In this document: one piece after another, positions 25,341 through 26,444 of the stretch
How the letters are laid out: each line of letters opens with the position of its first letter
Position numbering within the stretch: the first letter of the stretch is position 1
Virus record (IMG/VR): IMGVR_UViG_3300012347_000482
Coordinates: 53,051 to 117,050 of that record
DNA from: a virus
Taxonomy: Duplodnaviria > Heunggongvirae > Uroviricota > Caudoviricetes
Direction: 5' to 3' (one strand)
Length of the DNA stretch: 64,000 nt
Notes under the pieces: generated by a model
Databases searched by the model: none
What the model saw: only the letters and a program-made list of their open reading frames with translations
Told to the model about the DNA's origin: nothing
Position numbers and translations under genes: made by a program

Positions 25341-26444
25341 ATGAAAATAAGAGAAATAATTACAGAAAGCATATCAGTAACAGATTGGATTGAAAAAATA
25401 TACTCACAGTTTCCAGTATGGCCACTAAATCAAAACCAACGTGTTATTGATTTAGGCGGCGAAGGTGAGAATCAACAATTTGTATGGTTTGAATTAAAGC
25501 CGTCAACAAGTAAAAGAAATGCTGTTGAGATTGACTGGATTGGGGCCCATCCTCAACGAAGCGGCGCTGGCACTAAAGGTTTAAAAATATTACAAGGTTT
25601 AGCAAATGAAGCAGGCATTTCATTAACTTTATTTCCTTGGGAGCACGGGCCAGTCAGTCAACCTAAGCTAATTAAGTTTTATAAAAAATCAGGGTTTGTG
25701 CCTCAAATGAAAGGCGCCAAACACATGAAGTGGGATCCGCAGCCGATTGAAGAAGGATGGAAAGAATGGGTAGCAGGAGGTGCACTAGCTGCCGGTGCTC
25801 TTGCCGGTGCTTACAATCATTATAACCAACCACCAGAATTTAAACAACCAGCTCGTCCTATAACTATGTCACCGGTTCTTAAATACAAGTTAATATCTAA
25901 TAATCCATCTAACGAAGATGAACTTCGAGATGCTGCCGACAAAGCTAACATAACTGGATATGAATTAGCACAACTTATGGCACAATGTGCACACGAAACT
26001 AAAAACTTTGTATCAACCACTGAAGACGGTACAGATAAAAACTTTACCAAATGGTATGAAGATAATGCAGATCTTGGAAATACTGAAAAAGGTGACGGAA
26101 TTAAGTATAAAGGAAGAGGATTTATACATCTTACTGGCCGATATAATTATACTGCAGCGAGCAAAGCACTAGGACTTGATCTTGTCAATAATCCAGAGTT
26201 AGCAGCTGAACCAAAAAATGCAGCTAAAATTGCAGTATGGTATTGGAAATTTAGGGTAGATAACAGAGTTACTGATTTTACAAATACTACTAAAGTTACT
26301 CGAGCTGTTAACGGTAAAATTAATGGGCTAGACGAGAGGATTAGATATTTTAATCTGTACATTAAAGCACTTGGATTACCATCAGTCGAAAATGCAGCAG
26401 GTAATGTTCTACCTCAAGCGAAACCTGAAGTTAAAAATAAATAA
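25341..26444 (+). CDS. GNAT-like N-domain + hydrophobic segment + GH19 (chitinase/lysozyme-fold) domain; capsid-targeting-like N-terminus MKIREIITE
   Basis: GH19 signatures QCAHETKNF, KYKGRGFIHLTGRYNY and AVWYWKF; N-domain IDWIGAHPQRSGAGTKGLKILQGLANEAG...KLIKFYKKSGF is GNAT-like; WVAGGALAAGALAGAY hydrophobic linker. ATG 25341 preferred over the TTG 25329 of the ORF track. Confidence 0.7.
   Translation: MKIREIITESISVTDWIEKIYSQFPVWPLNQNQRVIDLGGEGENQQFVWFELKPSTSKRNAVEIDWIGAHPQRSGAGTKGLKILQGLANEAGISLTLFPWEHGPVSQPKLIKFYKKSGFVPQMKGAKHMKWDPQPIEEGWKEWVAGGALAAGALAGAYNHYNQPPEFKQPARPITMSPVLKYKLISNNPSNEDELRDAADKANITGYELAQLMAQCAHETKNFVSTTEDGTDKNFTKWYEDNADLGNTEKGDGIKYKGRGFIHLTGRYNYTAASKALGLDLVNNPELAAEPKNAAKIAVWYWKFRVDNRVTDFTNTTKVTRAVNGKINGLDERIRYFNLYIKALGLPSVENAAGNVLPQAKPEVKNK

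Follow-up and report, generated by a model that had tools for sequence, protein, structure and literature searches.

In phage T4 the lysozyme of entry is a baseplate protein, gp5. Phage T7 gp16 is capsid-internal, is ejected ahead of the phage DNA, and combines membrane activity with a lytic transglycosylase domain. SAR or signal-peptide endolysins, such as P1 Lyz and phage 21 R, possess a weakly hydrophobic, Gly/Ala-rich segment before the muralytic domain. [quoted passage not shown] The T4 CTS is MKTYQEFIAE (PMC8442874), and the gp21 cleavage site is L/I-x-E (PMC9026906).

Polyvalent proteins of phages and conjugative elements (Iyer et al. 2017, PMC5512222), as described in the sections of that paper used here, carry disparate catalytic domains in one polypeptide; capsid packaging, or delivery with the DNA, is predicted for them, with a role in breaking through the cell wall on entry being proposed for their lysozyme domains. 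The anti-CRISPR acetyltransferase AcrVA5 of Moraxella bovoculi prophages (6IUF) acetylates Cas12a at K635 (PMC13131331, PMC11021501). It inhibits Cas12a by modifying the PAM-sensing lysine. TfcB, a bactericidal effector of the Stenotrophomonas maltophilia T4SS (7R6S), pairs a GH19-like module with a signal by which it is delivered, through injection, to other cells (PMC11253643). Lastly, a GH19 chitinase, ORF272, has been found in virions of the related jumbo phage XacN1 (PMC5852040), a phage with T4-type head genes. As a precedent for packaging route or architecture ORF272 was rejected, it being a plain 211-aa GH19 protein with no leader, GNAT, or hydrophobic segment.

The gene considered here is found within a window, i.e., the whole stretch of 64 kb of DNA that was analysed, which is DNA of an uncultured jumbo phage lineage; megablast of the window against known phages gave zero matches. 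Its 367-aa product is found, identically, in public metagenome assemblies, on a 145,656-bp contig, and close relatives are on contigs of 261 kb and 483 kb. I use here the term 'lysin gene' for this gene and 'tag' for the leader peptide of its product. The gene and its parts are as follows.

25341..26444, + strand: lysin gene, coding sequence of the 367-aa tag/GNAT/Gly-Ala segment/GH19 protein, stop codon included (from the ORF list).
25341..25367, + strand: 9-residue leader MKIREIITE, T4 CTS-like, ending I-x-E (consensus among relatives).
25374..25739, + strand: mini-GNAT acetyltransferase-like domain, AcrVA5-like, aa 12-133 (profile against the PDB, AF2 model, Foldseek, conserved residues).
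25749..25814, + strand: EEGWKEW motif together with a hydrophobic, Gly/Ala-rich segment of 15 residues, aa 137-158 (conservation among GH19 relatives).
25815..25904, + strand: Pro/Gln-rich flexible linker, aa 159-188 (low pLDDT; length and sequence variable among homologs).
25905..26375, + strand: GH19 (lysozyme/chitinase-fold) catalytic domain, aa 189-345 (PF00182, PHROG 181, PDB matches, invariant residues).
25995-25997 and 26022-26024, + strand: GH19 catalytic residues Glu219 and Glu228, respectively, invariant in the family.

According to the ORF list the gene starts with ATG and its protein with MKIREIITE. There is an in-frame TTG upstream, at 25329, but the ATG of 25341 is kept as the start because the close homologs P0001-P0003 begin, at the same Met, with MKIREIITE or MKIKELLTE. 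An IMG/VR scan with the 367-aa protein gave matches confined to the GH19 domain. Cultured phages searched with the N-domain, and also with the whole of a short lysin, P0057, yielded weak GNAT fragments only (E 0.008-0.3), and no such match began before residue 42. The N-terminal part, that is, was met in no cultured phage of the collection searched.

The lysin gene sits at the end of an array of genes with the same leader, and the features of the window which bear on this are the following.

2820..3290, + strand: second protein with tag, EEGWKE, hydrophobic stretch, and AQA, with no lysin domain (translation MRIYEIINEDYTLEEGWKETLISAGMAGLFAITALTGAPPAQAAE...).
8854..25271, + strand: 12 genes in tandem, directly preceding the lysin gene, with products that open in the same leader as MRAREFI[IVF]E, MRIYEVITE, or MRLIELLRE (from N-termini and from upstream boxes in common).
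13633..14010, + strand: stand-alone tagged mini-GNAT paralog (MRLSQLFE...), 125 aa (BLASTP, hhalign).
25278..25285, + strand: promoter-like box ATAAATAT, held in common with the upstream tagged array and resembling the T4 late promoter TATAAATA (motif count).
25304..25330, + strand: hairpin with a T-rich run behind it, lying after the promoter-like box and before the start codon; terminator-like, with a 7-bp stem at 25307-25323.
27015..29128, + strand: two downstream paralogs in which the leader varies as MSISKLIIE and an HExxH (zincin-like) motif is present (translations; weak Pfam matches only).

N-terminal, about 10 residues in length, and with (L/I)-x-E at its end, the tag resembles the 9-10-residue leaders of T4 IPI, IPII, IPIII, and Alt, which are of the form M-(K/R)-x-x-(Q/E)-E/F-(F/I)-I-x-E, with the same hydrophobic-x-Glu end, and, as with the T4 internal proteins, the leader is found on otherwise unrelated proteins of a variable locus. 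Direct counting finds the tag on about 18 ORFs of the window, mostly in the one array; among GH19 homologs, 78 of 119 show its consensus, M-R-A-x-E-F-I-x-E, as do at least 62 of 139 GNAT-module proteins. Many of the proteins so headed are cytoplasmic-type enzymes with no hydrophobic segment. As compared with T4, however, the putative cargo is numerous (roughly 18 proteins within the 64 kb), multidomain, and large, reaching 737 aa, and one such protein carries a lysin as well as a membrane-seeking segment. In both structural models the leader is disordered (pLDDT <50). A literature search on leader strings (MRAREF and similar) found nothing relevant.

The tag is also lineage-specific while being uniform per genome, i.e., MRLQELLE at the related locus L006, MRATEFxTE at L008, and MKVKHITQYLFE in Salicola phage SCTP-2, a pattern which is to be expected should one recognition partner co-evolve with all of the tags. 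At L006 the tag is kept as a peptide as synonymous codons and upstream DNA vary, which rules out, for these relatives, a DNA- or RNA-level origin. Within the window many tagged genes are almost identical over their first 20 nt, and the tagged paralogs there are too similar for peptide conservation to be separated from DNA conservation.

All seven occurrences of the string TAAATA[TC]C[GA]TA in the window are on the + strand, with none on the - strand, and each precedes a tagged gene; the box before the lysin gene is a putative promoter. The hairpin following that box has a folding energy of -10.8 kcal/mol (z=-2.3), and the same arrangement of box and hairpin is seen upstream of the tagged gene at 19513. 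N-domains of the array are homologous only to tagged genes of SCTP-2, which is the only cultured phage with homology to the array proteins. SCTP-2 possesses T4 gp20, gp21, and gp23 homologs, and thus has both a tagged array and a T4-type (PF03420) prohead protease. Searching the 64-kb window by tblastn with XacN1 gp21, gp23, gp55, and scaffold found no T4-type protease, capsid, or late-sigma genes. The sole protease in the window is a full ClpP (PF00574, E=1.6e-64); a PHROG 'head maturation protease' match, considered as a possible T4-type prohead protease, was rejected as being this bona fide ClpP. A protease profile search (SCTP-2 plus XacN1 proteases) gave 8000 matches, with none of the 120 matches listed being on a contig equal in length to a lysin-bearing one.

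Behind the leader comes the mini-GNAT domain. A sequence-only reading of this DNA had described the N-terminal 110 or so residues as GNAT-like, a likeness which is borne out by profile, model, and conserved motif, though with the domain spanning instead aa 12-133. A profile of the N-domain (18 homologs) thus matches GNAT structures in the PDB, including 6IUF, i.e., AcrVA5, at E=2.4e-7. The AlphaFold (AF2) model of the domain is of a GNAT fold (pLDDT 86.8), i.e., a mixed beta-sheet that includes a beta4-alpha3 unit for CoA binding, and Foldseek searching with that model places 6iuf_A/B at ranks 1 and 2 (E=6e-6; target-normalised TM of 0.70-0.76), followed by SpeG, AtaT, TacT, and GCN5; the best 50 PDB matches listed are all of GNAT fold and nearly all are described as acetyl- or acyltransferases. 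The pyrophosphate-binding motif, R/Q-x-x-G-x-G/A, is present as Q72-R73-S-G75-A-G77, with G75, G77, and Y114 invariant and R73 conserved to at least 90%. By profile and by predicted fold, therefore, the N-domain is a GNAT, with the 92-aa AcrVA5 its closest solved relative. The two have in common a minimal GNAT, the R/Q-x-x-G-x-G motif, a 'SQxxLxxFY' helix, and encoding by mobile elements. AcrVA5, however, is a free protein, whereas the N-domain is extended at its N-terminus by a helix and strands (aa 12-55), is about 20% identical to AcrVA5 in structural alignment, and is fused to other modules. Scanning the 367-aa protein with Pfam at E<0.1 found no GNAT family, nor was there an NCBIfam match. 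Faint GNAT Pfam matches are seen on the relatives P0004 and P0005, which may fall in an extra N-terminal GNAT possessed by those proteins.

Homology with the stand-alone ORF at 13633..14010 had been claimed as well, and holds by BLASTP (E=9e-7, 30% over 60 aa) and by hhalign (probability 89%, E=2.3e-6), if for the C-terminal half of the GNAT fold only. The best PDB match of that ORF also is AcrVA5, if weakly (E=0.45), and its match to PF13508 is likewise weak (E=0.019). The domain mobility at which this duplication had been thought to hint has good support: More than 140 sequence clusters contain the GNAT module, which takes up every position within proteins of 109-1852 aa and at locus L020 is found in a gene separate from the lysin. 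Partner domains directly observed in relatives are ART-PolyVal, ParB_N, NUDIX, HD, deaminase, SLT, and Phage_lysozyme2. This is the same repertoire as listed for polyvalent proteins in the sections of PMC5512222 used here, i.e., GNAT, ART-PolyVal, ParB, NUDIX, HD, deaminase, and lysozyme/SLT, and the likeness extends to disparate catalytic domains occurring in one polypeptide. The lysin gene product itself combines GNAT with GH19, that is, at least two disparate activities, as judged by domain, in one polypeptide, with the domains coming from the shared polyvalent network. As set against what those sections describe, the proteins here nevertheless are smaller and are spread over an array of separate tagged genes, a GH19 fold takes the place of the lysozyme/SLT listed, and the T4-CTS-like leader and the EEGWK-Gly/Ala motif are met in neither case there.

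Between the two enzyme domains the sequence-only reading saw a hydrophobic Ala/Gly linker. The stretch exists, as aa 143-157, WVAGGALAAGALAGA, with EEGWKE before it, and is part of a strongly conserved motif: (D/E)EGWK followed by about 15 Gly/Ala-rich residues recurs in 110 of the 121 GH19 relatives. In these the hydrophobic stretch averages 15 aa and 67% Gly+Ala, has mean flanking charges of -2.3 on its N side (-2 here) and +0.3 on its C side, is followed by AxA in 90 of the 110, and lies 8-364 residues (median 108) from the N-terminus. Confidence in the segment is low in the full-length model, with pLDDT <50 for aa 137-181. The ORF at 2820..3290, for which family searches gave no match, likewise carries this module, its AQA|A site being clear.

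As to the C-terminal domain, three GH19 blocks had been named and these are found in place: QCAHET at aa 215-220, KYKGRGFIHLTGRYNY at aa 255-270, and AVWYWKF at aa 298-304. The check proposed for them, a Pfam PF00182 scan, gives E=2.1e-13 and 51 bits (cutoff 25.5) over residues 202-308, and PHROG 181, 'endolysin', matches at E=1.8e-41. The signature residues are directly seen, i.e., two catalytic Glu (the general acid in the 'HE[TS]' block, the general base about 9 residues later) plus the GRGxIQLTG block, and H218, E219, E228, G258-R259-G260, T265, G266, N269, and Y270 are invariant across 12 GH19 homologs, with E219, E228, G258-R259-G260, T265, and G266 aligning also with endolysin structures. 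Forty solved GH19 chains match at E<1e-3, the best being TfcB (7r6s, E=1.6e-25) and the PWe2 endolysin (9ms7, E=2.6e-25). On this sequence evidence the GH19 signal is far beyond chance and the domain genuine. The substrate probably is peptidoglycan rather than chitin, given that the nearest relatives are phage endolysins and the T4SS effector TfcB. TfcB differs from the protein here, however, in its bacterial T4SS delivery by a C-terminal signal, and in possessing neither GNAT nor Gly/Ala segment.

The lysin gene product may best be explained as a capsid-packaged, ejected, bifunctional (polyvalent-type) effector, a tentative reading which I place at somewhat under an even chance. MKIREIITE would lead the protein into the prohead core, as does the T4 capsid targeting sequence, with a T4 gp21-type prohead protease then trimming the leader after I-T-E. 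The protein would exit via the tail at infection, and EEGWK along with the Gly/Ala-rich segment would insert into or otherwise associate with the inner membrane. The GH19 domain, on its flexible Pro/Gln linker, would locally cut the glycan strands of peptidoglycan, and the AcrVA5-like mini-GNAT, on the cytoplasmic side, would acetylate some protein of the host, perhaps a factor in defence or transcription. Packaging, cleavage, and ejection of tagged proteins are what I infer from sequence and from analogy with T4; the data do show which domains these are, that the catalytic residues are conserved, that the tag exists, is conserved, and is distributed as described, and which partners the GNAT module has. 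T7 gp16 offers a further comparison, though it is unrelated in sequence, has an SLT rather than a GH19 fold, and lacks a CTS-type leader, and T7 itself is a podovirus whose core stack is a defined one.

In support of an ejected effector, the tag with its hydrophobic-x-Glu end and T4 CTS likeness provides real comparative support for capsid targeting, and the partners of the GNAT module match those of polyvalent proteins predicted to be injected. The acidic N-flank (that mean of -2.3) runs counter to the charge required for N-in export by Sec or SAR. The lysin gene lies in runs of tagged genes in the window and at L006, L008, and L020, not in a holin/spanin cassette, and L006 carries a separate, untagged Peptidase_M15_3 as candidate endolysin; both observations favour ejection. 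So too do the large virion proteins among the closest cultured-phage GH19 domains, i.e., those of S-B68 (839 aa, adjoining gp26), PhiEaH1 (2222 aa), and IME392 (952 aa). Weighing against it is that the 64-kb window holds no T4-type protease, capsid, or late-sigma gene, that neither the XacN1 chitinase nor any cultured phage of the collection provides a precedent for the N-terminal part, and that a head-packaged protein would need to end up with its two domains on opposite sides of the inner membrane. The capsid-targeting-like tag of the sequence-only reading thus gains from comparison (a lineage-specific peptide tag, its T4 CTS likeness, array plus protease in SCTP-2, and a polyvalent-type repertoire) and loses to the lack of a prohead protease gene in the window and to a segment which fits an exported endolysin as well.

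On that main rival reading, the protein would be a lysis enzyme, i.e., a late-made, membrane-tethered or exported endolysin, which is possible if less likely than an ejected effector. The Gly/Ala segment would then serve as a signal-anchor or SAR-like element within the chain, or, among short members, as a signal that can be cleaved off; GH19 would cross the inner membrane as the N-terminal domains stay cytoplasmic; the long linker would allow a tethered or released GH19 to reach the wall; and the leader would have another role. The roughly 15-residue run at 67% Gly+Ala does resemble SAR domains or signal-peptide h-regions, with AxA in most of the family and with the ORF at 2820..3290 adding its AQA|A. 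The shortest family members, at 230-240 aa, consist of just tag, EEGWK, Gly/Ala segment, AxA, and GH19, a layout resembling signal-peptide or SAR endolysins, which counts against ejection. GH19, furthermore, is a common endolysin family, with PHROG 181 and many of the best phage matches so annotated, and searches of the window brought up no lysin besides this one. SAR or signal-anchor segments are N-terminal with a basic N-flank, however, whereas the 15 residues here are internal (aa 143-157 of 367), lie behind a folded enzyme domain, and follow an acidic, conserved EEGWK. Across the family, too, the segment stands behind folded enzymatic domains, with its N-flank net negative and its C-flank about neutral or positive, contrary to the positive-inside rule for N-in/C-out. 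The EEGWKDWVAGAAMGAAALGG motif, moreover, is conserved far beyond ordinary signal or SAR sequences, the same leader is found on those many cytoplasmic-type enzymes without the segment, no recognisable holin/endolysin/spanin cassette was found in the window, recognisable holin or spanin neighbours were seen in none of the four contexts read, and L006 has its separate M15_3 peptidase.

It is improbable that the protein is instead a virion-associated peptidoglycan hydrolase of tail, baseplate, or portal, outside the capsid, with its leader an assembly or chaperone-recognition peptide. The nearest cultured-phage GH19 domains do reside in large tail or baseplate-neighbourhood proteins, and tail-fibre-like and tail-spike-like genes are present in the same window, but the leader is common to about 18 highly dissimilar proteins, and in relatives to NUDIX-, HD-, and deaminase-type enzymes, all of them unlikely tail parts, the 367-aa protein has no fused tail-protein domain, and the leader matches the T4 capsid signal rather than any tail motif (PMC8442874). 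Slightly more improbable still is a regulatory peptide of effectors acting only within the infected cell (a degron or recognition tag for a phage Clp system, or a translation-initiation feature), as might be suggested by the window's ClpP, by a ClpA/B-like ATPase near a related lysin gene, and by those nearly identical first 20 nt, since the L006 tag, varied in codons and lacking shared upstream DNA, is not an RNA or DNA element, a cytoplasm-only GH19 would have no substrate, and a terminal Glu after a hydrophobic residue is what a gp21-type protease needs (PMC9026906), with no degron of such form having been retrieved.

Returning to the ejected effector, the leader together with the EEGWK-Gly/Ala motif could, more speculatively, represent an undescribed delivery route, one which I consider unlikely. 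Dozens of large enzymes would be head-loaded by a T4-CTS-like tag, with a subset (among them the lysin and the ORF at 2820..3290) planted in the host inner membrane by a second, fusion-peptide-like signal after ejection, and a single polypeptide would work on either side of that membrane, the acetyltransferase disarming a cytoplasmic defence or host factor as GH19 opens the wall from the periplasm.

If an endolysin instead, the protein would be unusual among such enzymes in having both an internal anchor and an enzyme domain in the cytoplasm. The EEGWK-Gly/Ala motif, being compact, makes a candidate signal for export or membrane insertion. Should the leader be a capsid-targeting signal, then these uncultured jumbo phages (contigs of up to 483 kb) would inject a very large, fast-evolving arsenal of proteins, and the T4 internal-protein principle, which in T4 covers three small proteins, would be widened to take in arrays of multidomain enzymes. 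The AcrVA5-like module (about 190 sequence clusters at E<=1e-30) then would be a widespread candidate anti-defence enzyme, delivered prior to phage gene expression, and injected proteins could be predicted in metagenomic data by a simple sequence rule, the leader.

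The lysin gene at 25341-26444 (+) is, in the ORF list for the window, a single ORF of 367 aa with an ATG start and the N-terminus MKIREIITE. MKIREIITE or MKIKELLTE is the N-terminus of its closest homologs (76-96% identity), and an in-frame TTG four codons upstream of the ATG therefore is an unlikely start. The three GH19 signature blocks that the sequence-only reading had picked out are located at aa 215-220, 255-270, and 298-304, and the Pfam scan it had proposed gives PF00182 over residues 202-308 (E=2.1e-13, twice the gathering score). PHROG 181 (endolysin) matches residues 194-346 (E=1.8e-41), and a PDB profile search returned forty solved GH19 chains, headed by 7R6S (1.6e-25), which is TfcB, a T4SS effector (PMC11253643), with PWe2 endolysin (9MS7) also leading. 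When 12 full-length relatives are aligned, H218, E219, E228, G258-R259-G260, T265, G266, N269, and Y270 are invariant, and with E219 and E228 among these both catalytic glutamates thus are in place. On sequence grounds, the protein is a GH19 member.

The nine-residue leader of this protein is seen as well in a tandem run of genes, which the lysin gene ends, and in other ORFs of the window:

8854-25271 (+), tagged array of twelve tandem paralogs, nearly all starting MRAREFI(I/V/F)E, MRIYEVITE, or MRLIELLRE
27015-28154 and 28172-29128 (+), two paralogs downstream of the lysin gene, with variant leader MSISKLIIE(A) and a zincin-like HELTH motif
7724-7966 (+), tagged ORF outside the array, MKIFEVIQE
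45613-46302 (+), tagged ORF outside the array, MRIEEIVTE
31050-31322 (-), tagged ORF outside the array, MRVHEFITE

The C-termini of the array proteins consist of repeats, 'FPAGEAAIATxxxYAxxYA', with FGTNLAQR as last residues, and these repeats weakly match PF13693 HTH_35 and PF24408. In one tagged protein, of 737 aa (17215-19428, +), GYF_2 occurs four times (PF14237, E=1.8e-43) and the C-terminus is Arg-rich, while the paralog at 27015-28154 has three terminal PPPLP repeats and a weak formin FH1-like match (PF06346). Homing-endonuclease-like genes (NUMOD3/AHH and HNH) are found at 8069-8764 (+), which is the upstream edge of the array, and at 36159-36674 (-).

Among the best 120 GH19 relatives from public datasets, 119 start with Met and 78 of these carry the strict tag, M-R-A-x-E-F-I-x-E, with per-position frequencies among the best relatives of M, R 78%, A 61%, x, E 87%, F 56%, I 45%, x, and E 63%. 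The tag varies by lineage and is uniform per genome, i.e., MRATEFxTE in L008 and MRAQEFLxE in L020 (both loci on related metagenomic contigs), and MKVKHITQYLFE in the cultured Salicola phage SCTP-2. On a 318-kb contig (L006), eight adjacent genes start MRLYELFE, MRLQELLE, MKITDIIVE, and similar, with differing synonymous codons and unrelated upstream DNA. To go by such comparisons, the tag is a peptide feature. No paper describing this leader was found in the literature.

The leader of the tagged genes resembles the T4 capsid targeting sequence (CTS), MKTYQEFIAE (PMC8442874), of which positions 4 and 7 are for targeting and 8 and 10 for cleavage by gp21, the prohead protease, at L/I-x-E (PMC9026906). 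The array N-domains match no phage but SCTP-2, which alone among cultured phages has array-protein homologs (six places, 37.6% identity). A gp63-type RNA ligase adjoins the tagged array in SCTP-2 and in the window alike, and SCTP-2 has annotated homologs of T4 gp20, gp21, and gp23. The window yielded no gene for a T4-type protease, capsid, or late sigma, and the only protease found there is ClpP:

36824-37444 (+), full-length ClpP, PF00574, E=1.6e-64, which PHROGs label 'head maturation protease'

Near a related lysin gene, on the contig of a homologous protein, P0065, are genes for a ClpA/B-like ATPase and DnaJ. By analogy, the protein plausibly may be likened to T4 CTS cargo. The entry lysozyme of T4 itself is the baseplate protein gp5, and the contrast previously drawn with T4 is correct as established knowledge. 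The related jumbo phage XacN1 has a virion chitinase (PMC5852040), which differs from the protein here in being a plain GH19, without the extra modules.

Found ~20 nt before the ATG of the array's tagged genes is the promoter-like pattern CATAAATAT-CGTATCTAAGG, which recalls the T4 late promoter, TATAAATA, and of which the window has 7 copies on the + strand and 0 on the - strand. The box conserved upstream of the twelve array genes is CATAAATATCGTATCTAAGG. XacN1 encodes a late sigma factor. Associated elements are as follows:

25278-25285 (+), promoter-like box of the lysin gene, in the pattern of the tagged array
25304-25330 (+), terminator-like GC hairpin and T-run, between the ATAAATA box and the lysin start codon
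19475-19500 (+), GC hairpin and T-run, in the same box-hairpin arrangement before the tagged gene at 19513

A weak GAGA ribosome site of the lysin gene follows its box and hairpin. These two hairpins could be upstream-gene terminators or instead 5'-UTR structure.

Directly downstream of the lysin gene is an AlgH/YqgE (DUF179) homolog (26474-27013, +; PF02622, E=6.9e-26), a neighbor repeated on an independent contig (L021, 1596-2135). In both L008 (11389-12210) and L020 (8888-9340) the tagged GH19 gene closes the tagged run, with a nuclease bearing a classical signal peptide (Endonuclease_NS, SNase) 1-2 genes past it. Amidoligase_2 is found in an untagged gene adjoining the array (29125-30498, -) and in giant genes of tagged runs (L006 5545-8604; L020 2337-4772, 6118-8004). 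A pair of paralogous tail-fibre-like proteins (38179-40443 and 40400-42703, +; PHROG 22899, 9370) is present, as is a tail-spike-like protein with a pectate-lyase fold (57293-59221, +), and virion genes thus share the window with the array.

Toward the N-terminus of the lysin protein, some 110 aa had been described as GNAT-like. No GNAT match was found at significance in Pfam or NCBIfam. A profile from 18 N-domain homologs reached PDB 6IUF (E=2.4e-7), with other GNATs next, weakly; 6IUF is AcrVA5, a 92-residue anti-CRISPR acetyltransferase which acetylates Cas12a K635 (PMC11021501, PMC13131331). AlphaFold gave a confident model for aa 1-140 (pLDDT 86.8, pTM 0.80; residues 1-8 disordered), whose top Foldseek matches in the PDB are 6iuf_A/B (E=6e-6, target-normalised TM 0.70-0.76), followed by SpeG, AtaT, TacT, GCN5, and further GNATs. 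A CoA-pyrophosphate motif, Q72-R73-S-G75-A-G77, is conserved, as is Y114. As modeled, the N-domain is a GNAT fold with AcrVA5 as its nearest characterised relative, though it falls short of the curated GNAT HMMs. The description thus holds as to fold (AlphaFold, Foldseek, profile), but the extent is aa 12-133. Homology to the stand-alone ORF 13633-14010, as also claimed, is seen (BLASTP E=9e-7; hhalign 89%, E=2.3e-6), but over the C-terminal half of the fold. That ORF opens with a tag-like leader, MRLSQLFE, and its own best PDB match is likewise AcrVA5, weakly (E=0.45).

A profile of this 'mini-GNAT' has matches in 598 cluster representatives, of which 189 reach E<=1e-30; the proteins range from 109 to 1852 aa, and the module may stand anywhere in them. 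Other Pfam domains accompanying it are further GNATs, DUF6934, NUDIX, HD/HD_4, dCMP deaminase, and ParB_N, and additionally ART-PolyVal, SLT, Phage_lysozyme2, and LysM. Structure matches in BFVD are uncultured-phage proteins 145-1096 aa long, one of them a ParB/Sulfiredoxin fusion, and also 'structural' proteins >1000 aa. The strict tag is present in at least 77 of 145 further mini-GNAT proteins listed, a GH19 in only about 6. The modular order begins with the tag, followed in some proteins by an additional GNAT or other domains; next are the mini-GNAT, any ParB-like inserts, the EEGWK segment, a linker (Q/P/A-rich and of variable length), and then GH19, with or without LysM. Mini-GNAT and GH19, fused in the window, are split between genes in L020, that is, a 328-aa mini-GNAT protein and a minimal 230-aa tagged GH19 within one tagged run. 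Full-length relatives (42-48% identity) are found on metagenomic contigs of 268-332 kb, and the protein's own cluster and that of a homolog, P0005, have members on contigs of 261 and 483 kb; the lysin-bearing phages are jumbo phages. No cultured phage with the N-terminal part of the protein was found.

What the sequence-only reading had taken for a hydrophobic Ala/Gly linker between domains is present as a stretch, with aa 137-158 being EEGWKEW-VAGGALAAGALAGA-Y, but it is no casual linker. Rather, (D/E)(E/D)(G/N)W(K/R) with a Gly/Ala-rich run after it is conserved in 110/121 related GH19 proteins, typically as EEGWKDWVAGAAMGAAALGG. Among those with the motif the run averages 15 residues and 67% Gly+Ala, mean net charge is -2.3 in the 15 residues preceding and +0.3 in the 15 subsequent, and A-x-A follows in 90 of the 110. 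The motif starts at residue 8 to 364 (median 108), and the full-length AlphaFold model has low confidence at aa 137-181, between two well-folded domains. A lysin-free combination also exists:

2820-3290 (+), ORF of 156 aa, MRIYEIINEDYTLEEGWKE-TLISAGMAGLFAITALTGAPPAQA-AE, i.e., leader, EEGWK, hydrophobic stretch, and AxA

Its junction between TLISAGMAGLFAITALTGAPPAQA and AE is at an AQA|A site, and for the Ser/Thr/Gly-rich tail fused to the leader-EEGWK module no family match was found.

The strongest rival, an exported or membrane-tethered endolysin, draws on this segment, as its Gly/Ala composition is like that of SAR or signal-peptide lysins, which the minimal 230-aa forms also resemble, AxA is frequent after the run, and the window shows no second lysin. 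We nevertheless consider it doubtful, as the segment is internal, behind folded domains, and its acidic N-flank is conserved; it lacks both the N-terminal position and the basic flank which define SAR endolysins. In addition, the EEGWK-Gly/Ala motif is unusually conserved in sequence, the leader is common to many cytoplasmic-type enzymes, no recognisable holin/spanin genes are neighbors in four contexts, and L006 has a separate untagged M15_3 peptidase. A tail-located virion hydrolase is improbable, and a leader serving regulation or Clp recognition, with no packaging role, is more improbable still.

With domain identities, residue conservation, and comparative tag behavior as observed in this analysis, the best-supported reading, tentatively held, is that of a capsid-targeted, ejected bifunctional effector, for which we infer packaging, cleavage, ejection, topology, and both enzyme activities. 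The leader would serve to bring the protein into the prohead, and a cut after I-T-E would remove the leader. Once ejected, the protein would engage the inner membrane through its Gly/Ala segment. Its GH19 domain, tethered by the flexible linker, would cleave peptidoglycan, with acetylation of a host target left to the AcrVA5-like GNAT. That there is a two-signal route, i.e., capsid tag plus membrane-insertion motif placing one polypeptide across the host inner membrane, seems unlikely. The mini-GNAT's partner domains are the same repertoire as that of the 'polyvalent proteins' of Iyer et al. (PMC5512222), for which capsid packaging and injection are there predicted, with wall breaching at entry the role assigned to their lysozyme domains. 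By analogy with that set, the protein works like a polyvalent protein.
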